A stretch of DNA of 64,000 nt, from IMG/VR virus record IMGVR_UViG_3300021138_000017, positions 1 through 64,000 of that record. One strand, 5' to 3'. Source of the stretch: a virus. Position numbers and translations under genes: made by a program. The notes below the pieces were generated by a model. It searched no databases, was not told where the DNA came from, and worked only from the letters and a program-made list of their open reading frames with translations. Positions 4,376 through 40,600 of this stretch are shown piece after piece (position 1 is the stretch's first letter; every line of letters begins with the position of its first letter).

Positions 4376-4390
4376 GACAGCAATCTCTGG

Positions 4391-4419
4391 TTGACTTTTA
4401 TGTAAATAACAAGTATAAT
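4391..4419 (+). promoter_or_regulatory. sigma70-type promoter
   Basis: TTGACT-N17-TATAAT. Confidence 0.75.
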
Positions 4420-8986: not shown

Positions 8987-9079
8987 GGAGAGCTGGCCGA
9001 GCGGTCGAAGGCACCCGCCTACTAAGCGGGCATGGGCCTAAACAGTCCATCTAGGGTTCGAATCCCTAGCTCTCCGCCA
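8987..9079 (+). tRNA. tRNA-Ser, anticodon ACU
   Basis: GGAGAGC/GCTCTCC acceptor, G73, encoded CCA, long variable arm, CCCGC-CT-ACT-AA-GCGGG anticodon arm, GGTTCGAATCC T-arm. Confidence 0.92.
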
Positions 9080-9343: not shown

Positions 9344-9419
9344 TGGCTTATAGCTCAGTCGGTAGAGCGTTTGACTGTTAATCAAAATGTCCCTGGTTCG
9401 AGCCCAGGTAAGCCAGCCA
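9344..9419 (+). tRNA. tRNA-Asn, anticodon GUU
   Basis: 76-nt cloverleaf, TTTGA-CT-GTT-AA-TCAAA, G73, CCA. Confidence 0.95.
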
Positions 9420-19277: not shown

Positions 19278-20445
19278 TAAAATACATTATATTCCAACAG
19301 AGGAAGTAGAAAAAATAGTATGGAATGGCGATAGTGTTGAATATGATACAGCATTGTATGAATTAGGAAAAAACTACGATGAATTTATTGTTTTAAATCC
19401 AGCATTTTCCTTTTTGACACTAAAAGAAGAATTGCCTATCACTGCAGTAGTGGATAGTTGTATTACTTGGAAATATCAGGATTCATGGGTAGGAAAATAT
19501 TTTACAAAAAACTGGATCAACGAAAAACAATACCACGAAGTAAATCTAAATCTTATATGTAAAAAAAATGCCGCTTTTAAAAATATAAAGTTTAATGACA
19601 TTGCTGTTACTGATTTATATAATTTAAAATATCAAATGGTGTGGTACTTAGACAACAAATTTACAGAAGAAAAAATTTGGGTATACAAGTGCTATTTAGA
19701 AAATATAGAAACAAAAGGAACTAAATACATGGGATCCATAAGTCCTATAGACAGGTCAGCAAAAACCCCGGATGTTGTTTTTATCAGTTACAATGAAGTA
19801 AACGCCGAAGAGAATTGGCTACGTGTTTTAACTAAAGCACCCAATGCTAAACGTGTAAATGGTATCAAAGGTATTGTAAATGCCCATAAACAAGCTGCTG
19901 AACTATCTTCTACAGATATGTTTTATGTTGTCGATGGAGATGCTTACTTAACCGATGACTTCAATTTTGATTTTCAACCTGATATATTTAATAGAGAATG
20001 TGTTTATGTTTGGACTAGTCAAAATCCCATTAACAATTTAACCTATGGGTACGGCGGGGTAAAACTATTACCAAAAGATTTAGTACTTAAAGTAAACCAG
20101 TCTACAATAGACATGACTACAAATATAAGTCGCAAGTTTAAAATTTTTAATCAAGTAAGTAACATTACTAGATTTAACACAGATGAATTTAACACATTTC
20201 GTAGTGCGTTTAGAGAGTGTGCTAAGTTATCTTCTAGAATATTTTTACAAGAAGACTATTTAAAAAATAAAGAAAGATTAACAGTTTGGTGTACAGAAGG
20301 TTTTGATAAACCCTATGGTGAATGGGCTATCAAAGGAGCTTTAGCTGGCAAAAAATACGGTGAAGAAAATATCAATAATCCCGACAGTATTAGACTAATT
20401 AATAGTTTAGAATTTATAAAATTAAAATTTGAAGAGTTAATGTGA
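19249..20445 (+). CDS. glycosyltransferase-like (GT-A C-terminal domain)
   Basis: FISYNE..AHK.AA..VVDGD..YGYGG; paralog of 34259-35194. Confidence 0.7.
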   Translation: MTGLRKSITDKIHYIPTEEVEKIVWNGDSVEYDTALYELGKNYDEFIVLNPAFSFLTLKEELPITAVVDSCITWKYQDSWVGKYFTKNWINEKQYHEVNLNLICKKNAAFKNIKFNDIAVTDLYNLKYQMVWYLDNKFTEEKIWVYKCYLENIETKGTKYMGSISPIDRSAKTPDVVFISYNEVNAEENWLRVLTKAPNAKRVNGIKGIVNAHKQAAELSSTDMFYVVDGDAYLTDDFNFDFQPDIFNRECVYVWTSQNPINNLTYGYGGVKLLPKDLVLKVNQSTIDMTTNISRKFKIFNQVSNITRFNTDEFNTFRSAFRECAKLSSRIFLQEDYLKNKERLTVWCTEGFDKPYGEWAIKGALAGKKYGEENINNPDSIRLINSLEFIKLKFEELM

Positions 20446-21317
20446 TTAAAAAAATTATATACATCCTAGCATTTATTTTACCTTCGCTTACTTTAGCAGA
20501 AAATATAACAATTATTGTTCCGTTTTCTGCTGGGGGAGCGTTTGATATTATGGCAAGAAAAGTTGACTCTTTTCTACATAAGTTAAATTACGAAACAGTT
20601 GTAGTAGATATACCCGGAGCAGGTGGAGCTGTGGGTGTTACTAAATTACTTAATAGTCCGCCAAATACTTTGATGTTAACTAGCCCTTCAATTTATGTTG
20701 TAATGATTGAAAAAAATTTAGCATTGGATAATTTTAAAATAATATCAATTATGGGAGAAGTTCCGCAAATTTTAGCTGTACGCAAAGATCGCAATTTAAC
20801 TTGCGAAAAATTAAAAAACGATGATAAGACTTATTTTTTAGGGTCAGCTGGCAAGGATAGTCAAACATCTGTTCCTGTTTATTTTATCACAGAAAAGTAT
20901 AAACACTTTATCGAAGTTCCATATAAAGGAGCTAATCTTGCTTTATTGGATGTATTATCTGGACAAATAGATGGTGTTTTTCTTAATGGATATAGTAATC
21001 AATATAAAGAAATTGAATTTATAGCAAATAGTTCTCAAAAAGAATTTGATGGCATACCTTCACTGGAAAAATGTTTTGGAATTAAAAAATCTTTTGTAGG
21101 AGAATACCTACTGATAGCTAGTCCTAACAGCGATGAAAAGTTTATCAAAAACATGAATCAAATGATGATAAACTTTGCTAATAGCGATGAAGGTCAAACC
21201 TACTATAAACAAGTAGGAATAAAAAATACAGTTTCAGATTTAGCATCTACAACCAAAACTTTTAAAAATTCATATAATCTATGGAAACAAATTTTAAAAA
21301 ACAGGTACGAAAAATGA
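20442..21317 (+). CDS. Bug/TctC tripartite tricarboxylate transporter substrate-binding protein
   Basis: signal peptide; IIVPFSAGGAFD, PGAGG, VPYKG, DVLSGQID. Confidence 0.88.
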   Translation: MIKKIIYILAFILPSLTLAENITIIVPFSAGGAFDIMARKVDSFLHKLNYETVVVDIPGAGGAVGVTKLLNSPPNTLMLTSPSIYVVMIEKNLALDNFKIISIMGEVPQILAVRKDRNLTCEKLKNDDKTYFLGSAGKDSQTSVPVYFITEKYKHFIEVPYKGANLALLDVLSGQIDGVFLNGYSNQYKEIEFIANSSQKEFDGIPSLEKCFGIKKSFVGEYLLIASPNSDEKFIKNMNQMMINFANSDEGQTYYKQVGIKNTVSDLASTTKTFKNSYNLWKQILKNRYEK

Positions 21318-21376: not shown

Positions 21377-21685
21377 ATGCCAGTTAAAGCAACCATAACA
21401 TCAGTTAAACCTTCAGGAGCACAATGGTTTTCAGACGTATCTGCCGAAAATGCCGCAATAGGAAAAAGTAATGTAGACTGGTCAAAAGAACAACCAGGAT
21501 TTATCAGCGTAACAACCACAAATCCTGATGAGAATACAAGAATTATAGAATATACGTTTGATACTGTAGAAAATTATACAGCATGGTTACAGGCAAGAAG
21601 TAATTTATCATCTTTTAAAACAGTTGCCGAATACCACACTAATAATAATTTTGTTACTGTTAGACACGAAACAATTAATCAATAA
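21377..21685 (+). CDS. small protein, possible dimeric alpha-beta barrel (ABM-like)
   Basis: TAAATA promoter and AGGAG RBS; QPGFIS..FDTVENYTAW pattern. Confidence 0.6.
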   Translation: MPVKATITSVKPSGAQWFSDVSAENAAIGKSNVDWSKEQPGFISVTTTNPDENTRIIEYTFDTVENYTAWLQARSNLSSFKTVAEYHTNNNFVTVRHETINQ

Positions 21686-21746: not shown

Positions 21747-22988
21747 ATGTTTTTTTCTGAAGATCCAGAATTCACTAAACACGGCTACTATCAAATTAAC
21801 GATGTAAAAACTTTGAGTAAGTTTGAAGCTTATCAATTATCGGGAAAAGATTGGAGTAAAATTAAATTTATTTTCAACGATGAAATTTATGATCAATACG
21901 ATTGGACCGTTGAACCAGAAGAAGATATTTATGATTTATATTGCCAAAGAGCCCAGCAATTAAGAGAAAAATATGACTATCTTGTTTTAATGTATAGCGG
22001 AGGAGTTGATAGTCATACCGTATTAGAAACTTTTTTATTCAATAATATCAAATTAGACGAAGTATGTACTTTTTCTACGTCTGATTTTACTAAAAAATAT
22101 GACAAATTAAATCAAGAAGTTTTTAATTCGGCTATACCTTTTATCAACACATTAAATTTACATCAATTAGGTATAAATTTTAGAACGGTAGAGATAGGTC
22201 AATTAATCATAGACCAATGGGATGATGAATTCCATTTTGAAAATTTTCAATTTTACGCCAACAGTGCTCAATGGATTACTGTTTCTAGATCACATCAATT
22301 TAAATCTAAGATTAAAGAACACATGGATTTAATTGAAAAAGGAAAAACAGTTTGTTATATTTGGGGAGCAGATAAACCTAGTATACATATACAAGATAAT
22401 CAATATGTTTTTACAGTCAACGACGCTAGTATAGATTTTGGCACCAGGCAGTATGTTACTAGATCAATAATGAAAGATAATTTCTTTAATTTTTATGATG
22501 AAGCATTTTATATATCAAAAGATGCTCCAAAAATTTCTATTAAACAATCTCATTTATTAGTAAAATTAATGAAAACTATTCCTATAAGTGATTCTAGATT
22601 ACGGAAAAAAACAGAATTATCAAGTACAGGACCATTTGTTATTCATCACAAAATACAAAACATTCCTATTTATCTAAGTAAAAAGACAGTAGATGGTGCT
22701 ATATATCCAAAAGCAATATTGAGTAACTTTGGAGATGATAAATTATATAACTCTAGTTTAATACTTTCTCCCAAAGATAATTGGTTTTCTTTATCTAATC
22801 ACTCCAATCGTTGGAAATTTGAACAAAAAGTAAAAAATTTAATAAATGAAAATAGAAATTATTACAAATACGATCATTACGCTCCTAATTATAGACTTTT
22901 TAAACAGGAAGAATATAAAAATATTATTCCAAATCATGCCATGTATTTTTTTAGCAAATACCATGTGATTGGAGATATTGTACAGTAA
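21747..22988 (+). CDS. PP-loop (asparagine-synthase-like) ATP pyrophosphatase, subfamily A
   Basis: LMYSGGVDS; paralog of 25914-27122. Confidence 0.75.
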   Translation: MFFSEDPEFTKHGYYQINDVKTLSKFEAYQLSGKDWSKIKFIFNDEIYDQYDWTVEPEEDIYDLYCQRAQQLREKYDYLVLMYSGGVDSHTVLETFLFNNIKLDEVCTFSTSDFTKKYDKLNQEVFNSAIPFINTLNLHQLGINFRTVEIGQLIIDQWDDEFHFENFQFYANSAQWITVSRSHQFKSKIKEHMDLIEKGKTVCYIWGADKPSIHIQDNQYVFTVNDASIDFGTRQYVTRSIMKDNFFNFYDEAFYISKDAPKISIKQSHLLVKLMKTIPISDSRLRKKTELSSTGPFVIHHKIQNIPIYLSKKTVDGAIYPKAILSNFGDDKLYNSSLILSPKDNWFSLSNHSNRWKFEQKVKNLINENRNYYKYDHYAPNYRLFKQEEYKNIIPNHAMYFFSKYHVIGDIVQ

Positions 22989-24088
22989 TGAATATAGTTA
23001 TTTTAGATCCCCAAACTACTCATACCGATTTTATAGCTCAAAGTTTAGCAAAATATCATACTGTGTTTACTGAAATAGAAAACATAAACGTTAAAACTGA
23101 TCTTGTAATTCCCTTATTACACAACTACCAAATGCGTTTAAAATTTAGAGCTTGGATCAATAAATTGAAAATTCCTTGCTTAATGCCAAGTCTTGAAAAT
23201 TCTTATCTTGAATGGAGTAAAATTAAATCTAAACAACTTTTACTAGAATTGGGAATACCAACTCCTTCTTATAAAATATATACCACAGAAGATCTTTTAG
23301 TAAATTTTTATAATATTCCTAGACCGTTTGTATTAAAGTATGAACAAGATTTTAGGTTTGGGCTACAAACTATTATTATTACTGATGAAAACTATAAAGA
23401 AGAATATGAAAAATTAATAGCTAATGGATTAGAAAGAATAGAAATAATGAAATACAAAGGTCCATTTGTTAATTTGTTTATTGTAGAAGAATATATAAAT
23501 GGTGAAGAGGAAATATCATACCATGCTCTTTGTAATGAACATCAGTGGTCTTATTTAGGCTCTGCTAGAGATTACAAACGTAGATATGAAAATGATATAG
23601 GATACAACACAGACGGTATGGGGTCATATTCTATAGGAAATAATTATCCAATCATTGACCAATATGCCAATTCTATTATACAACACTTGAAATCACAAGG
23701 CAACCCGTATATGGGATTTTTTTATCTAGGAATAATTATTTCAAATGGTGTTCCATTTGTATTAGAGATAAATACAAGACCCGGCTGTCCAGAAATACAA
23801 TCTATTCTTCCAACTATAGATAACGAATTAGGAGATTTATTTTTATCGGTAGCAACCAATAAACCATTTGATATAAAGTTTAATGATAAAAAAGCAGTAA
23901 CAGTCCTTGTTCAAGGAAAATTAAAAAACAAACCAATAGATTTAATTTGTGGTTGTTCAAAAACTAGAGACGAGTTTACACTAACCGCTATAGACACTAC
24001 GATAACAAATGCTAGCGACAAAATTTACAATTATTTAAAATTGCTTGATAACTGCGAGTATAGAAAAGATATAGGATACCTTAAATAA
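22988..24088 (+). CDS. ATP-grasp ligase, diverged PurD/GAR-synthetase-like
   Basis: LEWSK..SK..L..LGIPT, IVEEYING, RDYKR..GYNTDGMG, LEINTRPGCPEIQ, YRKDIG. Confidence 0.8.
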   Translation: MNIVILDPQTTHTDFIAQSLAKYHTVFTEIENINVKTDLVIPLLHNYQMRLKFRAWINKLKIPCLMPSLENSYLEWSKIKSKQLLLELGIPTPSYKIYTTEDLLVNFYNIPRPFVLKYEQDFRFGLQTIIITDENYKEEYEKLIANGLERIEIMKYKGPFVNLFIVEEYINGEEEISYHALCNEHQWSYLGSARDYKRRYENDIGYNTDGMGSYSIGNNYPIIDQYANSIIQHLKSQGNPYMGFFYLGIIISNGVPFVLEINTRPGCPEIQSILPTIDNELGDLFLSVATNKPFDIKFNDKKAVTVLVQGKLKNKPIDLICGCSKTRDEFTLTAIDTTITNASDKIYNYLKLLDNCEYRKDIGYLK

Positions 24089-24149
24089 AAACTAACTACT
24101 ATATGAATCAAGTTATAACTTATTTGAAATTAACGGAATTATTTTAAAA

Positions 24150-24992
24150 ATGATTTTTAAAAACTATGCTGAAATTTTAGCCCACTATACTTCGGTAAAA
24201 AAAGGAAATTATGTTACTCCTGATTATATACTGAATAAACACAGCGATGGTATAAATTTATTTCGTAGATATTGTCCACATAGAATGTATCCTTTGGCCG
24301 ATGTAGGCAATACAGTAGAAAATATTGTGTGTAAATTCCACGGATTTGAGTGGGACAAAAATGGATCTCCGGTTAACAATGATCGTAAGATAAGTTGCGG
24401 TAAAGCAAAAATTGGAAAATCTGGATTAATATTTAAAAATTTTGTTGAACCAGATCACTACTGGGTAGATGATTTAGCAAAAGAAACTAATTTAGAGTAT
24501 AGCCATATTGAAACAGGTAAAAGTAACGGAAGTTGGCTATGGGCAATGGATATACAATCTGACCTGTTACATATTCGCAAAGGTGATGATGTTGTTCACC
24601 CAGGATTGTCTGCTGTTACTAATTTAGACGAATGCGAAATGGAACAAGGAGAAGGATGGATATTACAAACTTGTTCTACCGGCTGGTGGCTTTTTATATA
24701 TCCATATGCTTACGTTGAATGGAGTCCAGGCTGTTTAGCAATTAATAATCTCATACCAGATAATCCAGCAAGCGAATTTAAATTTGAATGGATAACACAG
24801 TATTATTATGACCCATCTGTGTCTTTGGAAAAACGCAAAGAATTTGAAACTTTAGAAGATGTGTTTAAAGAAGACATAGCTACCATTGAGTTACAAAAAG
24901 GTAAATATTTTCCTTTAGCCAAATCTACATGTAGATTAGAAGAACACTCTGTTTACTTTGGCGAGTGGGTAACTAAAAATCGCAGGGATTAA
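24150..24992 (+). CDS. Rieske non-heme iron oxygenase (alpha-subunit-like)
   Basis: CPHR..CKFHG Rieske motif; DLLH..VHP and ED..IE..Q mononuclear-iron motifs. Confidence 0.8.
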   Translation: MIFKNYAEILAHYTSVKKGNYVTPDYILNKHSDGINLFRRYCPHRMYPLADVGNTVENIVCKFHGFEWDKNGSPVNNDRKISCGKAKIGKSGLIFKNFVEPDHYWVDDLAKETNLEYSHIETGKSNGSWLWAMDIQSDLLHIRKGDDVVHPGLSAVTNLDECEMEQGEGWILQTCSTGWWLFIYPYAYVEWSPGCLAINNLIPDNPASEFKFEWITQYYYDPSVSLEKRKEFETLEDVFKEDIATIELQKGKYFPLAKSTCRLEEHSVYFGEWVTKNRRD

Positions 24993-24995
24993 ATT

Positions 24996-25910
24996 ATGAT
25001 AAGACACAATAATTGGATGTCATATAGCTTTGATGATGGATCAATAAATGGGGCCAAACCTAATATGTATTCAACATTCAAACTTCATTTCAAAAAGGGA
25101 CTAAAATATAAAACTATGTCTTACTATGATGCTTTATACTATAATGCTAGTGTAATGCGTGATGAGTTTTCGGAACCTTTTGATGTATTGCTATCAGGCG
25201 GAATTGATAGTGAAGTTGTTGTGAGAGTTTTTAAAGATTTAGGCATTAAACAAAATGTTTTTACTATTAGATTTGAAAATGATCATAATATACAAGATGT
25301 AGAAGCTGCCAAGAAAATTTGCGATAATATAGGTGTTGACTTAAAAATCATTGACTGGAATCTACAAAAGTTTTTTGAAAATGATGTTCAGGTAATGTTT
25401 GATAAAACATTTTGCCCTTATGTTGGAAGAATGTTACGGCATGCTTGGTTTGATTTACTTGACAATATTCCAGTTATGGCCGAGGGAGAACCGTATTGGA
25501 GACGAGAGCTACTTGAAGATTATACACAAAAGTCTGAATGGAAACTATGGTGGAGAGAAGATTATTTTACTGCCTCTATATACGGCAATACTGTAGGCAG
25601 AACCGTTATCACTGAATGGTACAATTATACTCCTGAAATAGTAATGAATTATCATCATTTACCTTTAGCCAAACAGTTGCTCAATGATGAATTTAAAGGA
25701 AAAATTAGTTGTTGGAGTAGTAGAATACCTATACATCAACACTTATGGCCTGATATATTACAAAGACCTAAAATGTACGGGTACGAAGGACCAAATCAAC
25801 CTGGGTACTGGCCCGAGTTTATTAGAACATTTGCCAATAATGTGTCACTCAAAGCATCTAACGAACTGTATAAATTTTCTGTATCTGAATTAGAAAACAT
25901 CTTTAACTAA
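24996..25910 (+). CDS. PP-loop ATP pyrophosphatase, subfamily B
   Basis: LLSGGIDSE; EWYNYTPE; paralog of 28541-29467. Confidence 0.75.
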   Translation: MIRHNNWMSYSFDDGSINGAKPNMYSTFKLHFKKGLKYKTMSYYDALYYNASVMRDEFSEPFDVLLSGGIDSEVVVRVFKDLGIKQNVFTIRFENDHNIQDVEAAKKICDNIGVDLKIIDWNLQKFFENDVQVMFDKTFCPYVGRMLRHAWFDLLDNIPVMAEGEPYWRRELLEDYTQKSEWKLWWREDYFTASIYGNTVGRTVITEWYNYTPEIVMNYHHLPLAKQLLNDEFKGKISCWSSRIPIHQHLWPDILQRPKMYGYEGPNQPGYWPEFIRTFANNVSLKASNELYKFSVSELENIFN

Positions 25911-25913
25911 ATT

Positions 25914-27122
25914 ATGTTTTTTGAAAACGATATTGACTTTGTCAAATTTGGATACTATCAAGTTGATAATATAAAAACTTTTAGCAAGTTTGAAGCTTAT
26001 CAATTTGCTAAAGGAGACATGAGTAAAATTCAATTTATATTTAATGACGATATTATGTCTCAATATGATTGGACGATAGAGCCCGAAAAAGATATTTACG
26101 AACTGTACGCTGAAAGGGCTAGACAAATACGTAACAAATATGACTATCTAGTATTATTGTACAGCGGCGGTATAGATAGCCACACAGTATTAAAATCATT
26201 TTTAGACAATAATATACACCTAGATGAAATTTTTACATTTACTAATGCCAAAGTAGAATCAACAACAGGTAAATTTAATCAAGAAGTTTTTAATGCCGCT
26301 ATTCCATTTGTAAGTTCTCTTAATCTTGTCAAACTGGGAACCAAGTTTAGACTATTTGATATTAGCGATTTAATTATTAATATGTATCAAGACGATTTTG
26401 TCGTTGAAAATTATCATTTGTATAATCAAGGTCCTGCCAATAACTGGACTAGCGCCATAAGATCTCATGTACTTAAATCTAAAGTAGAAGATCATTTAAA
26501 ATTAACAGAACAAGGCAAAACTGTTTGTTATATATGGGGTTTTGATAAACCCTTTTTACGATTCGATAATAATAAATATTCTATTTCTTTTATAGATGCT
26601 TGTATTGATTTAAATATGAGACAATTTATAAACAAAAAAACGTTTATATCTAAATTCGCAAACTTTTTCGATGAAGCATTTTACACCTGCCGAGAATTTC
26701 CAGAAATATCTATTAAACAAGGTCATTTGCTATTGAAATTAATTAAAACCATCAAACCTACTGATAAAATATTACGATTTAAAGAAGAAATTCCAACTAT
26801 TGGACCATTTGTAATACATCATTACAAAGAACAGTATAAATTTTTACCAAAAAATCTAGTCGATGCCGCAATTTATCCAGAGGCAAATTTACTACAATTT
26901 GGCGATGATAAAACTAAAGGTAGTATTATTATTCCGCAAAAAGATAAATGGTTCACTAGTTCTAATCATGATAATCAAAAAAGATGGTTTCAAAATTTTA
27001 ATAATTTAATAAAACAAAATAAAAACTTTTATGTATTTCGAAACAATGAAGTTATGAATATAAAGAGCATTTTTAGTAAACAGTATTGTATAGGTGAATA
27101 CAATCCTTTTGAGAATACCTAA
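25914..27122 (+). CDS. PP-loop ATP pyrophosphatase, subfamily A
   Basis: LLYSGGIDS; collinear with 21747-22988. Confidence 0.75.
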   Translation: MFFENDIDFVKFGYYQVDNIKTFSKFEAYQFAKGDMSKIQFIFNDDIMSQYDWTIEPEKDIYELYAERARQIRNKYDYLVLLYSGGIDSHTVLKSFLDNNIHLDEIFTFTNAKVESTTGKFNQEVFNAAIPFVSSLNLVKLGTKFRLFDISDLIINMYQDDFVVENYHLYNQGPANNWTSAIRSHVLKSKVEDHLKLTEQGKTVCYIWGFDKPFLRFDNNKYSISFIDACIDLNMRQFINKKTFISKFANFFDEAFYTCREFPEISIKQGHLLLKLIKTIKPTDKILRFKEEIPTIGPFVIHHYKEQYKFLPKNLVDAAIYPEANLLQFGDDKTKGSIIIPQKDKWFTSSNHDNQKRWFQNFNNLIKQNKNFYVFRNNEVMNIKSIFSKQYCIGEYNPFENT

Positions 27123-27124
27123 GA

Positions 27125-27703
27125 TTATTCAATAAGCATAAAACTTTTCATATTGCTTTTCCACACTGACTCACCTTTATTAGTTAAGTAATGCGTCATT
27201 ACCAATTGCTTACAACTCTCGGGTACAGGATATAATGACCCGCAGACATTATATCTAGTTGACTCCATAGCAAAGTCTGTGTTAGTATTAATTTTAATTA
27301 ACTTTAGGTACTCTGTAAAGCCTCGCAAATTATATTCTCTGCTGATAAACACACAATCTAACTTTTTTATTTTTGCCATAGCCAACTGAAATGGTAAACA
27401 GTATGTAGTGTTTAAAAATTTATCTCCTCCACTAAACTTACCAGAATGGCGATAGTCTGGATGTATCCACATTCTAGTACTACATCTACCGATACCTTTT
27501 CCCCATCGTTCTTCGTTTATTTCCAAGGCACTGAAGCAGACAATTTTGTCATCAATAGTTACCACTGGAAAAGATGCGTAGTTTCTAGGGTTTAGATTGA
27601 TGTAATTGTTTTTTAATTTATCTTTAGAATTTTCAATGTAGTCTTGACAATTATTCCATAAATCTTGGTCGAAACTACTAGCATAATCAACTATTTTAAT
27701 CAT
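27125..27703 (-). CDS. GNAT-fold acyltransferase-like (start corrected to 27703)
   Basis: IVCFSA..RMWIHPDYRH motif A-like; TAAATA-N7-ATG. Confidence 0.6.
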   Translation of the reverse strand: MIKIVDYASSFDQDLWNNCQDYIENSKDKLKNNYINLNPRNYASFPVVTIDDKIVCFSALEINEERWGKGIGRCSTRMWIHPDYRHSGKFSGGDKFLNTTYCLPFQLAMAKIKKLDCVFISREYNLRGFTEYLKLIKINTNTDFAMESTRYNVCGSLYPVPESCKQLVMTHYLTNKGESVWKSNMKSFMLIE

Positions 27704-27729
27704 TGTTTGATATTTACTTAAATATTTAA

Positions 27730-28560
27730 ATGCAAAAAATAAATTCATTCCTTTACTACATACTGTATCCTGTCCATCTAATTGCGTGGATAGGATTAGC
27801 AGTTTATCTCACATTTTTTAATTTTACATTTATAAACTTAATAGAACTAACAATTGGTTGGATTTTAATCGAAGGATTAGGAGTAGCGGTTATACTACAT
27901 CGTTATGTAAGCCATCGATCAGTAGAAATAAAACCCATACTCAAACCTGTGTTATTATGGTTAAGTTGTTTAAGCCTACAAGGCAGTCCGCTAGGTTGGG
28001 CGGCAGTACATAGAGGAAGTCATCATAGATACAGCGATACTGAAAAAGACGCACATTCTCCATCTAAAGGAAAATTGTATGCTTGGCATACATGGCTACA
28101 TGATTGGGATAGATATTTCAATCCAAAATATGTCATTGACTTAATTAAAGATCCTATTCATTTATGGTTTGCTAAACACTATAACTGGGTGATATTTTTC
28201 ACTTATGCTGTAGTTGGTGTAATTTCTTGGCAGTTACTTTTATTTGGGTTTATAATTCCGGCAGCTATCAGTTTGTATATGGAAAGTAATATTAATGTTT
28301 TTTGTCATACCCCAGGACAAGGATACAGAAATTTTGATACTAAAGATAATAGTCAAAATGTTCCATTGCTTGCTTGGATTACCTGGGGACAGGGGTGGCA
28401 CAATAATCATCATGCTAAAGCTAGTTCATACGATTTTGGAACTTCAGTTAGTGGCAAACCATACGAATGGGATTTTAGTTTAATATTTTTACCATTAATT
28501 GCTACAAAAGAAAGTAGACAAGCCATTTTAAACAATAGAAATGCTGTTCACTCACAATAA
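27730..28560 (+). CDS. membrane fatty-acid (delta-9-like) desaturase
   Basis: His boxes HRYVSH, HRGSHH, HNNHH; DAHSP; TM helices. Confidence 0.92.
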   Translation: MQKINSFLYYILYPVHLIAWIGLAVYLTFFNFTFINLIELTIGWILIEGLGVAVILHRYVSHRSVEIKPILKPVLLWLSCLSLQGSPLGWAAVHRGSHHRYSDTEKDAHSPSKGKLYAWHTWLHDWDRYFNPKYVIDLIKDPIHLWFAKHYNWVIFFTYAVVGVISWQLLLFGFIIPAAISLYMESNINVFCHTPGQGYRNFDTKDNSQNVPLLAWITWGQGWHNNHHAKASSYDFGTSVSGKPYEWDFSLIFLPLIATKESRQAILNNRNAVHSQ

Positions 28561-29467
28561 TCATTTAACCTATAGCGTAGGAAACAAAGAATATGGCTAT
28601 AGAGATAATTCTGTTGAACGGTATTCTGTAAATTTAGGGCAAGTTGATTTAGATAGATATTCTAAAAGCTCTTATGCAAATGAATTACATAGAACAGCAA
28701 AATTAGTAAATCAAGATTTAGGAAATGATCTAGTGCTGTTTTTATCAGGCGGAACTGACAGTGAAATAGTTTTACGTAATTTTGTTCATAATGGTTTCAA
28801 ACCCAGATGTATTGTTCTCAAGTTTGAAAATAACTACAATATAACCGAAGTTAAAGAAGCACATGAAATCGCGCAGGCGCTTGACGTAAAATTAGAAACT
28901 GTTGACTTTAATGTACATGAATTTTTTTATTCAGGAGAAGCTATAGAGTTCGGGGAACAAATACAGTGTACTCAACTTACGTATCTTATGATTTATAATA
29001 GTATTTTAAAATTAGGTACTCCTGCGGTTATGGGAGGAGAAGCCTTATTAACACGCTATGTTAATCAGACTGATAGCTATTGGTATTATACGTTTAGAGA
29101 AAACGAGGATGCCAGTGCCATACGTTTTTCTAATAAATTTAATATACCGTTAGTTAATGAGTGGTTCAGTTACACTCCTGAACTCTTACTATATTATTTA
29201 GAACATCCTAGTATAAAAAGACTAGTTTCAGAAAAATATAATTACAAAATAACTTCTGTTAGCAGTAAAAACTCTATACTAAATGAATTGTATCCTGGTA
29301 CTAGAACAAAAAATAAAAAACACGGATTTGAAAGTTTATTGGCATTTAATAATCTAGCTTACGAAGATATTGGTAAAAATCAAATACCACGATTAGAATT
29401 TAGCTTGGATGGAATACCCTATAGTCAAGCAATACTAAACTTAAAAGGTTTCTATGAAAGTTGTTGA
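28541..29467 (+). CDS. PP-loop ATP pyrophosphatase, subfamily B
   Basis: FLSGGTDSE; EWFSYTPE; KHGFE. Confidence 0.75.
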   Translation: MLFTHNNHLTYSVGNKEYGYRDNSVERYSVNLGQVDLDRYSKSSYANELHRTAKLVNQDLGNDLVLFLSGGTDSEIVLRNFVHNGFKPRCIVLKFENNYNITEVKEAHEIAQALDVKLETVDFNVHEFFYSGEAIEFGEQIQCTQLTYLMIYNSILKLGTPAVMGGEALLTRYVNQTDSYWYYTFRENEDASAIRFSNKFNIPLVNEWFSYTPELLLYYLEHPSIKRLVSEKYNYKITSVSSKNSILNELYPGTRTKNKKHGFESLLAFNNLAYEDIGKNQIPRLEFSLDGIPYSQAILNLKGFYESC

Positions 29468-30023
29468 ACTAACTAACGAACACGAGGTTTCTATTAGACA
29501 CTTGTTTAACAAAAATCAATCTGTATTCGATGATCAAAACAGTGCTGAATTTTTAGAATACAAAATATTTTTAGAAACATATTTGTCAAATTTATCTAGA
29601 TATAAAGCATTTGGTTTAGAAGATAGCAGTGGTATGCTATTAGGTTTGATATCTTTTTATATTAGCCATAACGAACCAGTTTGGTATATTACTACACTTC
29701 GTTCAACAAATAATAAAATCATTGGACCTATCTTAATAGAAGCTGTTATAAAATATAATGAAGAATACGGTAGGTATAGATTTTATACATTGTTGCCAAC
29801 AAAATACAGTAAATTTTTAAGAAAATTTGTATTCAGCAAAAATATCAAAGAAAGATATGAGTACATTGATGAATGTTTAGTGCCAGCAAAAACTAAGTGT
29901 ATCTATCAAAATTTTTGGAATATACTTTTCAACAGAACGTTGTCTCTTGAAGACAATATAGTTAGATGTACATATCTAAAACAAGAATATAGAAAAAATA
30001 TACCTATTGGTGGGAATTTATAA
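29454..30023 (+). CDS. GNAT-fold protein
   Basis: LLGLISF..WYIT..IGPILIEAVIKY pattern. Confidence 0.5.
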   Translation: MKVVELTNEHEVSIRHLFNKNQSVFDDQNSAEFLEYKIFLETYLSNLSRYKAFGLEDSSGMLLGLISFYISHNEPVWYITTLRSTNNKIIGPILIEAVIKYNEEYGRYRFYTLLPTKYSKFLRKFVFSKNIKERYEYIDECLVPAKTKCIYQNFWNILFNRTLSLEDNIVRCTYLKQEYRKNIPIGGNL

Positions 30024-30625
30024 TGATGGTAAGCCCGTACAAATTATTTGAATCTACGTTGAATTGCTATAAAATCAATAGTAATGAGGAATTAGGCAAC
30101 ACCTTACGCGAGTTTTTTAATCAACCAACAAACGACTATCTTTGGAAATTATCAACTCATAGACAAACAGTTACCCACGCCTTAAGGAATACAGAAACAA
30201 TACATTTGAGACACTTGGAACATTTTCCTAAAAACTTTGATACACTACAACTAAATCAACTTATGGAAGTAAAACAATCTCTACTAGCGGAAATAGCTGT
30301 ATTTAAAAAAGCTGTAAATTGGTTTGAAGAAGTTTTAATGAACACAGGCGCAAACACAGTAGAATTAGGTAGGATTTTTATTAGCAAGTTGTCTCCAAAT
30401 TCTAAAGTTGATCTTCATACGGATGAAGGAAATTATTTTAGCTATTATGACAGATTTCATTTTACAGTTACTGCCGCTGTAGATAATATATTTTCTATAC
30501 AAGACAAAAACTATACTTTAGAACAAGACTCTTTATACTGGGTTAACAATCATGTTCCGCATTGGTTAGAAAATAAAAGTAAATTTGGTAGAATAAATTT
30601 TATTGTAGACGCTAGACTATCATGA
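30023..30625 (+). CDS. Asp/Asn beta-hydroxylase-like Fe/2OG oxygenase
   Basis: LHTDEG..RFH..VNNHVPH..N..RINFIVD. Confidence 0.8.
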   Translation: MMVSPYKLFESTLNCYKINSNEELGNTLREFFNQPTNDYLWKLSTHRQTVTHALRNTETIHLRHLEHFPKNFDTLQLNQLMEVKQSLLAEIAVFKKAVNWFEEVLMNTGANTVELGRIFISKLSPNSKVDLHTDEGNYFSYYDRFHFTVTAAVDNIFSIQDKNYTLEQDSLYWVNNHVPHWLENKSKFGRINFIVDARLS

Positions 30626-31506
30626 ACATTGAAAATATATATGATACATGGGGATCTATAATTTATTTAGATTCGCCAGAAGAATTTTTTACTATGGACA
30701 AAGATTATTGGAGAAATTTAATATATGCCCGTAAACTTATAATTTTTAAAAAAGTAAACTTTACAAAAACACAATACGCTGAATTTAGTTTTCACTTTGG
30801 AAGTCCTTGGAAAATAGAAGACTATCGATATTCTAAAGAATGGGCAGAAATTGTAAACACCAAATATGGTAATCAAATTATCAGTCCTTTCAGTAACGAA
30901 CTTATTAAAAAAATACCTCCAGAGTTTATGCCTTGGCATGCTGATATACCAAATAGACAGTTCAACCCTTTTCCTTTTAGAAGTTTATGGATAACCAGTA
31001 ATCCAAATCCTGACAATTCAGGTCAAACTATATGGATGAATTTAGAAGAATCATTTGACTATCTTACAGATGAAATGAAGGAACTAATACCTAAAGTTAC
31101 AGTAGTACAGCAAAGTTGGTATGAGCCAGGAAAAGATATACAAGAATTTCCTTTAATAAAAATTCATCCTATTACCAAAACAAAATCTTTACGATTAAAT
31201 CATTATAATTGGGGGTTAAACAAATCTGCTTGGATAATTGATGTAAAGATAAACAATGTTTCTCAAAAAAATTGTGCTCTTATTAAAGAGTATCTAGACT
31301 ACCTGGAAAGAATAAACAAATTAAAATACCAACATCGTTGGGATTTATATGACATAGCACTGTATGATAATTATTCGTTCGTTCACGCTAGAACTGCTTT
31401 AAACTTTGACAACAATAATAGCATAAGACATTTTTATAGAATCAATATAGATCATCTCGATGATAAAGAATGGCATAATCATAAAACCCAATATTTTAAT
31501 TTATAA
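30622..31506 (+). CDS. TauD/clavaminate-synthase-family dioxygenase
   Basis: WHAD, GQT, HPITK, HRW..DIALYDN..VHAR..R. Confidence 0.85.
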   Translation: MNIENIYDTWGSIIYLDSPEEFFTMDKDYWRNLIYARKLIIFKKVNFTKTQYAEFSFHFGSPWKIEDYRYSKEWAEIVNTKYGNQIISPFSNELIKKIPPEFMPWHADIPNRQFNPFPFRSLWITSNPNPDNSGQTIWMNLEESFDYLTDEMKELIPKVTVVQQSWYEPGKDIQEFPLIKIHPITKTKSLRLNHYNWGLNKSAWIIDVKINNVSQKNCALIKEYLDYLERINKLKYQHRWDLYDIALYDNYSFVHARTALNFDNNNSIRHFYRINIDHLDDKEWHNHKTQYFNL

Positions 31507-31508: not shown

Positions 31509-32762
31509 ATGTCTATGCTAAAAAAAGTAATACCAATTAGTTCTACCGTCTGTGCTGTTCCTTGGATGCATCTTAATTTTGAACCTAGTGGTAAAGTAAT
31601 TACTTGTTGTCTCACTAGTAGTTTTCAAGCACACTTGGGCGACTTAAAGTCGCAGTCAATTGAAGAAATTTGGAATAGTGATAAACAAAAATCTATACGC
31701 AAGGATATGATAGAAGGTAAGGAACCTGGAGTATGTTCTAAGTGCTTTGACAGAGAACGAGTCACAGGAGAAAGTGGTAGGGTTTATCATAACAGAGATT
31801 TTCCTGAAGTAATAGAGTCTATACCCGATATTACCTTAGAAGATGGTACGTGTACAACAATGGATTTAAAATACTGGGATTTTAGATTTAGTAATATTTG
31901 TAACTTCAAATGCCGTAGTTGTGGTCCAAGATACAGTAGTGCTTGGGTACCTGATGCTAAAAAATTAGGATATACTGATCAAGAAAAAGTTTGGACAATA
32001 GATAATATTGATGATAAAACTAACTATGATTTTCTCGAAGATCAAATTGACACAGTAAAAAGAATTTATTTTGCCGGAGGCGAACCGTTACTAATGCCTG
32101 AACATTGGCAAATACTAGATATGCTCGTTGAAAAGAAAAGATTTGATGTTAAACTTTCTTACAACACTAATTGTTCGGTGTTAGAATATAATAAAAAAAA
32201 TATCATTGATTATTGGAGCCAGTGGCAATCTGGTAAGTTAGAAATTTGGCCCAGTATTGACGAAATTGGAGAAAGAGCAGAACTCATTCGTTCTGGAACA
32301 GTATGGTCTACTGTAGATAGCAATCTTAAAAAATTAGTTCTTATAGAAAAAGCTCTTATACGTCCTCATATTACAGTAGCGGCATGGAATGTTCATAGAC
32401 TTCCTGAAATTATTGAGTATTTTATTAGTGTAGGTGTCATAAGCGAAAAATGGCGTTATCAAAATTTTTACTTAAATTTACTAGAATATCCACAATATTA
32501 TAATGTGCAAATACTATCAGACGAATTTAAAAAAGCTACTATAACTAAACTACAGTCCTTTATTGAAGATTATAATAAAAAATATAATGTTGACATAAAC
32601 TATTTGTTTAAATATACTCTACATGAATTAGAAAAACCACACAATGAATCTCTAGCTAGAAAATTCCTAAGTATGACAAACAGTATAGACATTGTAAGAA
32701 ACGAAAAATTACTCGATGTAGTAACAGAATTACAACACTTAAAAGACCAATATGAAAATTAA
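31509..32762 (+). CDS. radical SAM enzyme with N-terminal SPASM/twitch domain
   Basis: CAVPW..CC..IWNS..CSKC; CNFKCRSC; FAGGEP. True start may be 31515. Confidence 0.9.
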   Translation: MSMLKKVIPISSTVCAVPWMHLNFEPSGKVITCCLTSSFQAHLGDLKSQSIEEIWNSDKQKSIRKDMIEGKEPGVCSKCFDRERVTGESGRVYHNRDFPEVIESIPDITLEDGTCTTMDLKYWDFRFSNICNFKCRSCGPRYSSAWVPDAKKLGYTDQEKVWTIDNIDDKTNYDFLEDQIDTVKRIYFAGGEPLLMPEHWQILDMLVEKKRFDVKLSYNTNCSVLEYNKKNIIDYWSQWQSGKLEIWPSIDEIGERAELIRSGTVWSTVDSNLKKLVLIEKALIRPHITVAAWNVHRLPEIIEYFISVGVISEKWRYQNFYLNLLEYPQYYNVQILSDEFKKATITKLQSFIEDYNKKYNVDINYLFKYTLHELEKPHNESLARKFLSMTNSIDIVRNEKLLDVVTELQHLKDQYEN

Positions 32763-33723
32763 TAAAATTTTTAGAGATTTATCTAGACCCAGCTATTTTT
32801 GTGTAGACTGGATGCTACACGATCGTTGTACTTACGACTGTAGCTATTGTCCACCGAGTAACAAAAGTGGAACTGATAGTTGGCTGACTTTAGACACACT
32901 AGATGAATTTTGCGATGGATTAGATCGTCATGTTCAAACTGTCAATCCTGATATGCAAATACACATAATATTCTCAGGAGGTGAGCCCACTGTATGGCGT
33001 GATTTCAGTGAGCTAGTAGATAGAATGGCAGCTAGAAGGTGGGCTATGAGTTTGAACAGTAATGGATCAAGAAGCCTTAGATGGTGGCAGGAAAATGCTC
33101 ATAAATTTGTAAAAATATATTTAAGTTATCACACAGAACAAGTTAATGATGAAGATTTTTTAGAAAAAGTAAAAGTTTGTGAAGAACACACAGTTGTAGG
33201 AGTAAACGTAATGATGAATCCTGATCCTGAACGATTCGAACAAGCTATAAGATTTACAGAAAGATTGCGTACAGAAACTGAAAAATGCCACTATGCCCAT
33301 CACCAAATACAATATAACTTTGGTAATACTGAAATAAAAGTTCCGCAATATACAGAAGAACAAAAACTTACTATTCTTAACTTAAAACACAGATGGACTC
33401 CTAAATATAATTTATCAAAATATGACAGTAATCATATGATGGAATATGAGGATGGAACTAAAAGTCATTTCAATGGATTACAATTAATAAAAACTAATCA
33501 AGCTAATTTCCAAGGTTGGGAATGTGCAGCAGGACTAGAGGGTATTTGGATTAGTGCTAGAGGAGAAATTATGCGTGGTACTTGCCACGTTAGTGGCCTT
33601 TTAGGTAATATACTTGAACCTGACAAAATTCAATGGCCTACCGAAACTGTTACTTGTCCGTATGCGTGGTGTGGCTGTTTGCCTGACATGTTAAATACAA
33701 AAACTCGTCCTCAAAATGTTTAA
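32752..33723 (+). CDS. radical SAM enzyme with C-terminal Cys cluster
   Basis: CTYDCSYC, SGGEPT, CAAG..C..CPYAWCGC. Confidence 0.9.
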   Translation: MKINKIFRDLSRPSYFCVDWMLHDRCTYDCSYCPPSNKSGTDSWLTLDTLDEFCDGLDRHVQTVNPDMQIHIIFSGGEPTVWRDFSELVDRMAARRWAMSLNSNGSRSLRWWQENAHKFVKIYLSYHTEQVNDEDFLEKVKVCEEHTVVGVNVMMNPDPERFEQAIRFTERLRTETEKCHYAHHQIQYNFGNTEIKVPQYTEEQKLTILNLKHRWTPKYNLSKYDSNHMMEYEDGTKSHFNGLQLIKTNQANFQGWECAAGLEGIWISARGEIMRGTCHVSGLLGNILEPDKIQWPTETVTCPYAWCGCLPDMLNTKTRPQNV

Positions 33724-37617: not shown

Positions 37618-40600
37618 TTATCCTAAACGTCCAGAAGCAGTACCACAGTTATTGAATGTTACCGTTGAGGATCCTTTAACTAAGTAGTAGCCAGCACTGC
37701 CCCCGTATCCGGCTCCACCACCATAACCAGCACCGTTACCATTTCCGCCGCCACCGTTATTTCCAGGAGTGCCTGGACAACCTGGAGTTCCTGGGCTTCC
37801 CGGATTTCCCGGAGCTCCGGTGTTACCAAATGCTCCACCGGCACCTCCGTGTCCACCTGTACCACCGGCACCTCCTGCCCCACCTGTACCAGCGTTAGTT
37901 CCTCCAGCACTTCCAGCCGATCCAGCACTTCCTGCGCTTCCACTTGATCCAGAACCTGCTGATTGATTATATCCTTGTCCTACACCACCGGCTCCGCCAG
38001 CTCCACCACCGCCACCTGCACCACCTGCTCCTCCGCATGTATAAACGGTACTGTTTTGGTATTGTCCAATAGAATAACAACCGCAGTTATGAGTTCCGGT
38101 TTCTAAAGCACCGGTTTGATAAGTTTTTCCATCATAAGGGGAAACTACAGTTGTACCAGGTCCTGGTATTAAACCAGCGCCACAACTATATACAACTAAG
38201 CAATTCCAAATCCAAGTATTGTGGTACCTATAATCTCCACAGCAATAGCAAAGATATTGTGATACTACAGAAACAGGGGGATACTGGCTATACTGAAAAT
38301 TGTACCCCGAACTGCCGTAATATCCGCCACCACCTGCCCCACCTGGTCCACCACATCCACCAACTCCACCTGCTCCTCCACCGCCACCACCTGCTGATAC
38401 AGATCCATAATTATTAATTATAGTAGAAGTAGTTGTTTGAGCGCAGATAGCGTTTCCACCTGTACCACCCGGAGCTGATCCACCATATCCTTGTATACTA
38501 CCATAATTGTTAAGTGTCATGGTACTACCTGATGGAAATGAACCAATAGTTAATGCGTTATTGCCAGGAGTTCCGCCAACTGTTACTCCATTATTAATTG
38601 TAACAGTATAAGCGGCTTGTGGCTTAGGACTAAACAAACTAGATAAATTTAAATTAGTAACAGGCGATGCTACTGTATACGATTTAGATTGTAAATATCC
38701 CAGTGTTCCCGGAGAAGTAAATTTGTGTATAATTTTTCCTCCAGAAGATGTTATTGTTCCACCAGCAAATTTTTGCGGAGCAGGATAAGAAATAATTACG
38801 ACACCAGATCCGCCTAATCCAGCATATAGACTTGGATAACAACCACCATCGTACCCACCGGCACCACCACCACCAGATCCTGTTCCTGCTGCTCCAGGGT
38901 TAGCATTATTATATCTAGATCCGCCAGCACCACCGATGCCACAGGTGTTGCCACCCGGATTTCCACCACATCCAGAACTGTTGCCACCACCACCACCGGC
39001 CGCATAACGTAGAGTAGAACCAGTTATATCGCTGGCCACTCCTGCTCCACCGGCACCACCATTTATTCCACTTGGGCAGGCGTTAGCACCAGCACCACCA
39101 GCACCACCACCACCACCACCACCTCCAGGATGGCCACCGTATCCTCCAGGATTGCCCTGTCCAGGTGTTCCACTTCCTCCAGCACAACCAGGTGCCCCAT
39201 AAGTTCCGCCCCCAGATCCTCCAGCAGTTCCAGCAGGCGAATTACCGCTACCACCACCGTAGGCGGTCATACCATTAAATGAAGAATCAGACCCTGGTAA
39301 ATTGCCTCCAGTAGCTCCAGCTCCTACTACCACAGGATACGCATTAAGACTACACAATGGTGTTGTTCCAGTTAGCAAACCACCAGCGCCACCGCCACCG
39401 CCACCAGTTTCAATACTGCCACTTAAATTTTGACCGCCACCACCGCCTCCTACTATAAGATATCTTACAGTAACAGATGATGGTGGTTTACTTCCATAAA
39501 CTCTACTAACACAATTACAGGTCCAATATACATAAACAGAACCTGGCGCACTTATAGCTGCTCCAGCACTTCCATAATTGCTAACATAGCCGTTATCTCC
39601 ACCGGATGCTCCCCAACCGCCGCCGCCACCGGCATTGCCACCGTTACCATTACCTTCTCCACCTCTTTGTCCGGCTCCGCCACCGCTACTCTGTGCGGGA
39701 CCAAAACGGTTACCTTGACCTGCTCCGGCACCACCTGCTGATCCGCCAATTCCTATATAACAAGATGAAGCTATTGGGCTTCCCGGTAATACTCTTCCAC
39801 CACCTCCACCGCCGTATCCTCCACAGCAAGGACAAGAACCACCGTTTCCTCCTGGTTGTCCAATATTACCTCCGCAGCCTCCATAAGGAGCCCCACCTGC
39901 TCCACCACCGGCACCACCACCACCGCCAGCATTGCCGTAATAACCGCCGCCGCCTCCACCACCGCCACCTGCGATATATCCAGTAGGACTTGTATTATTA
40001 ATTGTTATTGGATAACTTATACTTAAGGCTGGTCCTCCAGGTTGACCGGAGCCTCCACAATTACCACCATGTCCACCTTGTCCTATAATATATCCGCGAT
40101 TTATTAAATTAAAAGTGTCCCCAGTTGTTCCACCATTAATTGTCAATCCAGCATTACTAATAGCGGTAGCATATAAGTAAACTCCGCTGTTAACTGTAAT
40201 AGTTACCGTAGTAGATCCGGCGGTATATCCAGGTAAAGAGGGTACATTTAACACCGCGTTAGCTCGAGGACTACTATATGTATAATTTACTACGCCAGGT
40301 GTAACCACTTCAATTTCAACTACTCCTGGAGAACCGTTACCTCCCTTACGAGCAGGATATCCATAACAGGTAATATGTGCTCCGCTTCCTCCGTTGCCAT
40401 ATCCAGTAGCATTATTACCGCAATTATTGCCACATACACCAGCACCTGCTGAGCCACAACCATAACTATAACCCGCTGACCCACCTGGTCCAGAACTTGT
40501 ACATCTACCGCCAGGACTGCCGGCTGAACCGCTGGCACCCGAATGTGGTGAAATAGCTGTTGTAAAAGTGCCTCCGCCTCCAGACGCTGTGGGACCTACT

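Follow-up and report, generated by a model that had tools for sequence, protein, structure and literature searches.

Predicted glutaminase-less, asparagine synthetase-like enzymes of two virus-restricted families in recurring gene cassettes of an uncultured jumbo phage

Asparagine synthetase (AS)-like enzymes provide natural-product chemistry with versatile tools for the formation of amides, lactams, and nitriles. In AsnB-type enzymes, the glutaminase is an N-terminal nucleophile (Ntn) domain, the catalytic Cys of which follows the initiator Met. The chemistry described for the wider AS-like group includes aspartate amidation, closure of beta-lactam and carbapenam rings, lasso cyclization, C-terminal amidation of peptides, and nitrile formation, and ammonia can replace glutamine in these enzymes (PMC13060819). 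This work examines four PP-loop genes in a 64,000-nucleotide stretch of viral DNA (the window), which is the first 64 kb of the 76.6-kb IMG/VR virus record IMGVR_UViG_3300021138_000017. The genes fall into two families and are ordered A1, B1, A2, B2. In the reading that we favor and consider fairly probable, their products are stand-alone adenylating enzymes that resemble the AsnB synthetase domain, dispense with the glutaminase, and reside in separate, shuffling gene cassettes.

As a preliminary description of the window had reported, all four genes are open reading frames (ORFs) on the + strand that encode an S-G-G-x-D-S motif: A1 (21747..22988, 413 aa, SGGVDS at residues 84-89), B1 (24996..25910, 304 aa, SGGIDS at residues 67-72), A2 (25914..27122, 402 aa, SGGIDS at residues 84-89), and B2 (28541..29467, 308 aa, SGGTDS at residues 69-74). 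A1 and A2 are collinear from residue 1 (50% identity over 412 columns, E 4e-142) and contain the long motif string by which that description had paired them. B1 and the divergent B2 (27% identity over 271 columns, E 5e-32) share HNNxxxYS, LSGGxDSExVxRxF, and EWxxYTPE, all present as quoted there. Between the two families, sequence likeness does not extend past the PP-loop region (BLASTP E 0.012 across 36 residues; hhalign probability of 95% over 65 columns). In alignments of 36 A and 33 B sequences, S-G-G-x-D-S is invariant, and the PP-loop core aligns structurally to LarE, NAD synthetase, GMP synthetase, and others. All four proteins are members of the PP-loop ATP pyrophosphatase superfamily.

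Assignment within this superfamily by curated profiles is limited. For A1 and A2, nothing significant was found in Pfam, PHROG, or NCBIfam, and for B1 and B2 these databases gave weak matches to Asn_synthase, QueC, NAD_synthase, MnmA, TilS, and TtuA that cover the PP-loop region only. Pfam Asn_synthase (PF00733) reached 28.3 bits for B1 against a 21-bit cutoff, but over just 71 of 354 profile positions; B2, at 12.8 bits, lies below the Pfam gathering scores, and A1 and A2 gave no match. With PF00733 partial and TIGR01536 far below its cutoff (31 versus 267 bits), no curated profile identifies AsnB over the domain. The preliminary description had also stated that none of the four ligases shows a glutaminase domain, and this held up: GATase_7 had no match in the whole 76.6-kb record, whereas 14 of 14 control genomes were matched, and GATase families were absent from Pfam scans of the window proteins. 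Only ∼40 to 60 residues precede the helix leading to the PP-loop in A and B proteins. A and B are thus not AsnB proper, since they lack its defining glutaminase domain and do not reach its profile cutoffs.

Families A (∼400 aa) and B (∼305 aa) are virus-restricted and uncharacterized. Among 90%-identity clusters, homologs number 255 for A and 263 for B, all named "hypothetical protein" save one named "QueC." A complete HMMER search using the A profile retrieved 1,591 clusters at 50% identity, 1,327 of them at E 1e-10 or better; among 150 listed A clusters, most proteins are 340 to 450 aa long, with few shorter fragments and no longer fused form. No fused longer form of B2 was found, which is weak evidence. 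In the ESM Atlas, the A clusters are 100% viral, and the Atlas clusters overall are 95 to 100% viral. A tblastn search of A1, B1, and B2 against 50,697 phage records gave no match among cultured phages. By sequence search of solved structures, family A had no match, and family B matched only PP-loop stretches of NAD synthetase, MnmA, QueC, and LarE. One contig labeled as a giant-virus metagenome-assembled genome (MAG), IMGVR_UViG_GVMAG-S-1045060-49_000001 (locus L038), carries three family A genes together with a TctC-like gene; either this bin is phage or family A reaches beyond tailed phages.

Because sequence likeness is so local, the fold carries most of the argument. AlphaFold models were built on the family alignments for A1 (predicted local distance difference test score [pLDDT] of 91.8, predicted template modeling score [pTM] of 0.91) and B1 (pLDDT of 93.6, pTM of 0.91), and A2 and B2 were assigned by homology. 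In a whole-fold search of 48,161 chains with VIA-align 2, the best match of B1 was human ASNS (9b6c; Z 16.0, 261 of 304 residues aligned, root mean square deviation of 3.7), followed by Escherichia coli AsnB (1ct9; Z 15.0, 261 residues), beta-lactam synthetase (1jgt; Z 12.7), carbapenam synthetase (1q15; Z 12.5), and TsnB9 (7ylz; Z 11.2), while generic PP-loop enzymes scored Z 11.1 or below with ∼150 to 180 residues aligned. A1 matched the same group, namely human ASNS (Z 10.9, 283 residues aligned), E. coli AsnB (Z 10.6, 283 to 289 of 413 residues), beta-lactam synthetase (Z 9.4), TsnB9 (Z 9.0), and carbapenam synthetase (Z 8.7), versus Z ∼7 for generic PP-loop enzymes. These five AsnB-group matches span 246 to 261 of the 304 residues of B1 and 249 to 289 residues of A1. 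Foldseek placed beta-lactam synthetase first for B1 (E 2e-6), with MnmA and ASNS also among the top matches, and recognized only the core of A1. An Atlas structure search from A returned viral proteins of ∼290 to 300 aa, some annotated as QueC or Asn_synthase, which are probably family B. These matches scored a template modeling (TM) score of 0.55 by query and 0.75 by target, and for this reason A looks like B with insertions.

In both models, the AsnB synthetase-domain fold extends beyond the PP-loop core, and A and B are accordingly modeled as glutaminase-less relatives of that domain, with a fold of catalytic type rather than a noncatalytic scaffold. The preliminary description had proposed comparison with AsnB, lasso cyclase, beta-lactam synthetase, and TilS; the best structural matches are catalytic folds of the AsnB/beta-lactam-synthetase type, not a noncatalytic one. 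Like the AsnB/ASNS synthetase domain, their best whole-fold match, A1 and B1 carry SGGxDS and would be expected to catalyze carboxylate adenylation and nitrogen attack; unlike it, they show sequence likeness in the PP-loop region only and are viral genes in nonhousekeeping cassettes. Beta-lactam synthetase, carbapenam synthetase, and TsnB9 (a hydroxyamidotransferase) offer precedents for an AsnB fold repurposed for natural-product tailoring without classical glutaminase chemistry. Beta-lactam and carbapenam synthetases close the lactam with a Tyr-Glu dyad. All three enzymes keep a full-length but inactive or altered N-terminal domain of ∼200 aa in the place where A and B have the short segment described above, and no clavam or carbapenem pathway genes are present here. 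A and B are best filed as new virus-restricted variants of AS-like adenylating enzymes.

The PP-loop matches could also be read as a sign of nucleic acid modification, that is, QueC-, TilS-, MnmA-, or TtuA-like action on tRNA or phage DNA bases. The weak Pfam, NCBIfam, and PHROG matches of B1 and B2 to these four enzymes fit such a role, and a QueC-like gene (5354-5980), ThyX, and tRNA genes occur in the same window. We nevertheless regard it as very unlikely. NAD synthetase, QueC, MnmA, TilS, TtuA/NcsA, LarE, and GMP synthetase share a PP-loop Rossmann-like core of ∼150 residues with A and B and are their only sequence-level matches, but the matches to QueC, MnmA, TilS, and TtuA span only a 60- to 80-residue PP-loop region, and the AsnB type outscores these enzymes in whole-fold comparison (Z 16 versus 8 to 10 for B1; Z 10.9 versus 4.8 to 6.9 for A1). 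QueC possesses a C-terminal zinc-binding cysteine cluster, as seen in the Bacillus subtilis structure. The alignments of 36 A and 33 B sequences contain no invariant cysteine, so neither family has a conserved counterpart of the catalytic or metal-binding Cys of these enzymes for a zinc site, persulfide, or Fe-S cluster; this makes sulfur transfer unlikely and argues against zinc-dependent PP-loop enzymes as well. QueC membership was rejected on these grounds, together with a match confined to profile positions 3-67 of 210 and Z scores below those of the AsnB group (3bl5; 8.0 versus B1, 6.8 versus A1). Assignment to the tRNA thiolases or LarE (MnmA, TtuA, NcsA, ThiI, and LarE) was likewise rejected, given the lack of an invariant Cys, core-only matches, and Z scores of ≤11.1 for B1 and ≤6.9 for A1. 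Moreover, no RNA-binding extension is apparent, and the partner genes encode an exported binder and a membrane desaturase. The QueC-like gene itself (+ strand, 208 aa) is a fifth gene of PP-loop type, far from the island that holds the four ligases; its match to the QueC profile (E 2e-9) falls in the C-terminal part of that profile, its N terminus weakly matches Asn_synthase, and it may be a genuine 7-deazaguanine-pathway gene.

The neighborhoods of the four genes resolve into three recurring cassettes. Cassette A consists of an exported TctC/Bug-type acid-binding protein (20442..21317, + strand) and an A enzyme, often with a PurD-like ATP-grasp ligase (22988..24088, +). Cassette B1 pairs a Rieske [2Fe-2S] oxygenase-like protein (24150..24992, +) with a B1-type enzyme. 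Cassette B2 combines an SCD1-like desaturase (27730..28560, +), a B2-type enzyme, a GNAT-like 189-aa protein (g29454; 29454..30023, +), and a gene for a conserved 207-aa protein, transcribed divergently from the desaturase gene (g27125; 27125..27748, −), often followed by two 2-oxoglutarate (2OG)/cupin hydroxylases (30023..30625 and 30622..31506, both +). In the window, the desaturase gene overlaps the start of B2, and g29454 overlaps its end by 14 nt.

To define these associations, viral loci were collected around relatives of A (57 loci) and relatives of B (80 loci), the recurring units being those of 136 related viral loci (numbered with the prefix L), and ORFs were labeled by BLASTP against the window genes. 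A TctC-like gene stands directly beside an A gene in 26 of 33 cases, a Rieske gene beside a B1-type gene in 19 of 26, a g29454 homolog beside a B2-type gene in 51 of 56 (usually with the desaturase after or before), and an ATP-grasp homolog beside an A gene in 6 of 8; these counts include related contigs that are not independent events and depend on the BLAST labels, which lessens their weight for the reading we favor. Linkage follows phylogeny. In a maximum-likelihood tree of 108 B proteins, a deep split places B1 and B2 in different clades that have distinct partner genes: B2 belongs to a 55-member clade (support 99), 49 members of which adjoin a g29454 homolog, and the Rieske label occurs in B1-type clades only. 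On this tree, 2 changes suffice for each partner label, versus ∼17 in shuffles. In a tree of 102 A proteins, the A1 and A2 clades are sisters, and the A2 ortholog clade comprises L003, L005, L006, and L008 at 60 to 73% identity. Because A1 and A2 each have an ortholog in L003, the duplication must be older than these phages. The preliminary description had proposed that duplicates retained beside different tailoring enzymes reflect either substrate specialization or A/B hetero-oligomers. Each copy is indeed so placed, and the tracking of subfamilies by partners fits substrate specialization; the hetero-oligomers fared less well, as set out below.

The four genes had been presented as two interleaved paralog pairs, and the comparison with related phages does not support such pairs as a meaningful unit. 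In the close relatives L126, L138, and L139, the flanking genes are 60 to 85% identical to those of the window, and the interval between the epimerase and the downstream conserved genes contains nothing but g27125, the desaturase, B2, and g29454, in some cases together with the hydroxylases. As these phages keep the B2 cassette alone, TctC, A1, the ATP-grasp ligase, the Rieske gene, B1, and A2, all missing from them, are accessory. Together with the deep separation of B1 from B2 and the age of the A1 and A2 lineages, this indicates that A-B-A-B is not a conserved architecture and that the order is incidental. B2 is the most widespread of the four.

A and B might still act as obligate hetero-oligomers, the A-B-A-B order representing two A/B complexes. 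The two families clearly share islands, their co-occurrence is far above chance (the other family lies within 10 kb in 26 of 56 A-seeded and 34 of 80 B-seeded loci), and B1 and A2 are just 3 nt apart. Searches with hidden Markov models (HMMs) of both families, on the other hand, found no B within 10 kb in 30 of 56 A-seeded loci and no A in 46 of 80 B-seeded loci, so that more than half of the loci hold one family alone. A and B genes are seldom immediate neighbors (8 of 122 A genes), B2 occurs without any A in L126, L138, and L139, and copy numbers are unequal, with 1 to 7 PP-loop genes per locus and cases such as three A genes and no B. We therefore consider obligate hetero-oligomers highly improbable. 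Under the cassette reading, the A-B-A-B order would instead have arisen as cassettes built up next to one another in a variable island beside fiber genes. The richest island seen is that of L003 (IMGVR_UViG_3300032242_001655), where 20 kb contain two A, five B, and two TctC-like genes along with a Rieske gene and a desaturase. On a further contig (IMGVR_UViG_3300042484_002676, loci L026 and L076), up to five tandem SCD1-like desaturase paralogs flank a Rieske-B1 pair; in some phages, desaturase genes have multiplied to the same extent as PP-loop genes.

Selection was gauged from dN/dS, the ratio of nonsynonymous to synonymous substitution rates (Nei-Gojobori), against the nearest orthologs. 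The ratio is 0.13 to 0.26 for A1, 0.05 to 0.12 for A2, 0.11 to 0.25 for B1, and 0.06 to 0.13 for B2, values that are approximate because dS is saturated (>1.3) for all ortholog pairs of window genes; closer family B pairs gave 0.04 to 0.09. All four copies are under purifying selection, and none is decaying, in line with the earlier proposal that the duplicates are retained. B2, which is just 27% identical to B1 and scores below the Pfam gathering thresholds, might raise the suspicion that each pair includes a decaying or noncatalytic duplicate. The idea is extremely improbable: each of the four ORFs is intact and retains all family-invariant residues, SGGxDS included, the dN/dS values are low throughout, and B2 is the most widely conserved lineage rather than the weakest.

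The same sequence also persists across years. Near-identical DNA is found in independent lake and freshwater metagenomes dated 2012 to 2020, contigs of which span the stretch with 0 to 2 differences. Contigs of one 2016 run bridge most of the gene junctions concerned, namely TctC/small gene/A1/ATP-grasp, ATP-grasp/Rieske/B1, A2/g27125, and desaturase/B2. Because independent contigs cover the stretch and bridge most of its junctions in this way, the gene order is real.

The partner proteins were assigned to families where possible. The TctC-like protein matches Pfam TctC at the gathering score and, by phmmer, solved binding proteins of tripartite tricarboxylate transporters (TTT), namely 7ndr (E 8e-14), a terephthalate-binding protein, BugD, and Bug27; it and all its listed homologs carry an N-terminal signal peptide. 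The ATP-grasp ligase matches Pfam GARS_A (E 8e-22), but PurD itself was rejected, as TIGR00877 (purD) gave 126 bits, far below the 288-bit cutoff. The Rieske protein (Pfam Rieske, E 6e-8) has weak phmmer matches to SxtT, SxtDIOX, and DdmC. The desaturase resembles membrane acyl-CoA di-iron desaturases of the delta-9/SCD1 type (Pfam FA_desaturase, E 2.5e-14), matches the stearoyl-CoA desaturase structures 4ymk (E 8e-9) and 4zyo by phmmer, and has three His boxes. The two hydroxylases are an Asp/Arg-hydroxylase-like cupin (Pfam Asp_Arg_Hydrox, E 8e-7) and a TauD-type 2OG oxygenase (Pfam TauD, E 2e-16), which are co-located with B2-g29454 in many loci (e.g., L069-L074, L085, L086, L136, L138, and L139).

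Two members of the B2 cassette lack a family match. For g27125, an alignment of 13 homologs has 21 invariant columns, and homologs stand beside desaturase or B genes in L069-L075, L090, L092, L126, and L136-L139. For g29454, with no Pfam match, an Atlas structure search with a low-confidence model led to GNAT acetyltransferases (TM 0.60 to 0.69); hhalign to bacterial GNAT proteins was negative for both g29454 and g27125. Distant bacterial relatives of B, 27 to 28% identical, occur in Bradyrhizobium denitrificans LMG 8443 (L140, 7830-8807) and in an alphaproteobacterial MAG (L141, 7938-8768), in contexts that are not phage-looking. L140 reads GT4 glycosyltransferase, glutamine-synthetase-like gene, B-like gene, unknown gene, GNAT gene; in L141, an unknown gene and then one for a GNAT-domain protein come after the B-like gene. 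At both sites, a bona fide GNAT gene thus lies one or two genes away from the B-like gene, reminiscent of the pairing of B2 with g29454.

The AS-like enzymes that act on peptides are a further point of comparison. Lasso cyclases, the peptide C-terminal amidases TsrC and ScdTA, and the nitrile synthetase PesC are AS-like enzymes that work without free aspartate, sometimes with ammonia, and in clusters with hydroxylases (PMC13060819). AsnB-like enzymes of the island might likewise modify a peptide or a virion (fiber) protein, with radical S-adenosylmethionine (SAM)/SPASM, Asp/Asn-hydroxylase-like, and TauD proteins as co-tailoring enzymes. Roles of AS-like enzymes are known in the biosynthesis of ribosomally synthesized and posttranslationally modified peptides (RiPPs), and the PesC pathway couples to Asp hydroxylation (PMC13060819). 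The island holds two radical-SAM genes (31509-33723, +), the first with SPASM, as well as the Asp_Arg_Hydrox-like cupin and TauD; a conserved 102-aa gene (21377..21685, +; no family match) lies just before A1, between it and TctC; and the island abuts giant fiber-like genes (1,959 and 4,909 aa). Several findings nonetheless make peptide or virion protein modification unlikely. The 76.6-kb record, ∼22% of the genome, has no match to PF05402 (PqqD-like RiPP recognition element [RRE]) or PF13471 (transglutaminase-core leader protease), and lasso cyclase membership was rejected for want of both. Homologs of the 102-aa gene, at 31 to 44% identity, occur in L070-L075, L107, and L126, which include loci without A, so this gene is not tied to A. 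There is no demonstrable precursor peptide. Many cassettes have no radical-SAM gene nearby. The cassette partners, which comprise a solute binder, a desaturase, and a Rieske oxygenase, set these genes apart from lasso and C-terminal amidase systems, and the tightest of these partners, the periplasmic binder and the membrane acyl desaturase, are a poor fit with maturation of a cytoplasmic peptide or virion protein. In the first radical-SAM protein, SPASM (residues 15-79) precedes the core (127-226), and paralogs of both radical-SAM genes recur near cassettes in related loci.

The NAGGN pathway (AsnO and Ngg) provides an analogy only: there, an AS-like enzyme, a GNAT, and an ATP-grasp ligase build a small N-acyl peptide amide, but AsnO has a glutaminase domain, and the ATP-grasp ligase here is PurD-like rather than Ngg-like. 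B1 was rejected as an NAGGN AsnO (TIGR03104, 13.3 bits versus a 570-bit cutoff).

In the adenylating-enzyme reading that we prefer, each enzyme would use ATP at the PP-loop to adenylate a carboxylate, by analogy with every characterized member of the fold group. Attack of free ammonia or an amine on the acyl-AMP would then yield an amide, or possibly a lactam or a nitrile; with no glutaminase domain, the nitrogen must come from free ammonia or from an amine substrate. The cassettes would recur and shuffle among uncultured jumbo and T4-like water phages. For the A cassettes, the candidate substrates would be small organic acids bound in the periplasm, and for the B2 cassette an acyl or lipid-like molecule, given that an exported binder and a membrane-embedded desaturase make small acids or a lipid-like substrate likelier than a cytoplasmic virion protein.

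A number of points weigh against this reading. The function of every family member is predicted from fold and context. Sequence and profile alignment to E. coli AsnB ends after the PP-loop region, which leaves active-site residues beyond it unmapped, including the Asp-Arg pair by which AsnB binds aspartate, and the Glu-Tyr dyad characteristic of AS-like enzymes could not be placed in A or B. The A1 score (Z ∼11) just moderately exceeds the background quoted for the tool, and the fold class of A2 and B2 derives from homology to the modeled A1 and B1. The GNAT assignment of g29454 is a lead, given its low-confidence Atlas model and negative hhalign result. TctC would be periplasmic whereas A is cytoplasmic, so that a link between them requires a host transporter, and none is encoded here. 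Finally, no RNA run was listed among the data sets that contain the stretch.

A bolder and tentative version, which we think possible but doubtful, is that the cassettes constitute a previously undescribed phage auxiliary metabolism. Here, the exported Bug/TctC protein would capture dissolved organic acids and, via a host TTT permease, supply the cytoplasmic family A ligases, and the desaturase, B2, and the GNAT-like protein, with LpxO/OlsC-like and TauD hydroxylases, would, in the course of infection, build or remodel an N-acyl (aminolipid-like) amide in the membrane of the host. If so, the many paralogs would reflect different acids or hosts. A literature search found no description of phage AsnB-like, PP-loop, TctC, or desaturase systems; one review table lists tctA as a phage auxiliary metabolic gene, with nothing further.

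The record itself is a fragment of a jumbo phage, as follows from its CheckV completeness estimate of 22%. The GC content of the window is ∼30 to 35%, and neighbors of the island in the window include MoxR, a vWA-peptidase, ThyX, an NAD-dependent epimerase, tRNAs, and the giant fiber-like proteins. The vWA-peptidase matches cultured jumbo phages, Sinorhizobium phage Phosso and Pseudomonas phage PA5oct, at 44 to 45% identity only, which indicates that the lineage is represented among cultured phages and that the A1, B1, and B2 genes are not. Both giant ORFs adjoin the island on the opposite strand. The first (37618-43497, −; 1,959 aa) is glycine-rich, with four Gly_rich_2 matches and a GC content of 49% versus ∼33% elsewhere, and the second (46621-61350, −; 4,909 aa) has weak DUF2460 (tail) and FG-GAP matches. 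The T4-type late promoter TATAAATA occurs at 4 sites versus ∼17 expected, and thus gives no promoter signal. ARAGORN called a tmRNA-like gene in permuted form, its tag peptide 29 residues long (3964-4398, +), a 93-nt tRNA-Ser with the unusual anticodon ACT (8987-9079), and tRNA-Asn(GTT) (9344-9419).

For the AS-like enzymes, A and B add two large virus-restricted branches without the glutaminase half and without whole-protein coverage in Pfam, PHROG, or NCBIfam, present in abundant lake and ocean phages. Their description corrects a tendency to label these genes QueC or asparagine synthase, and the cultured strain with a B-like gene, B. denitrificans LMG 8443, could serve as an experimental entry point. 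If the cassettes are catalytic, they would represent modular small-molecule or lipid tailoring in phages, seen in none of the cultured phages searched, and would offer enzymology new compact ammonia- or amine-dependent ligases. Such a system would bear on how viruses rewire the uptake of dissolved organic carbon by their hosts or remodel the host cell envelope.

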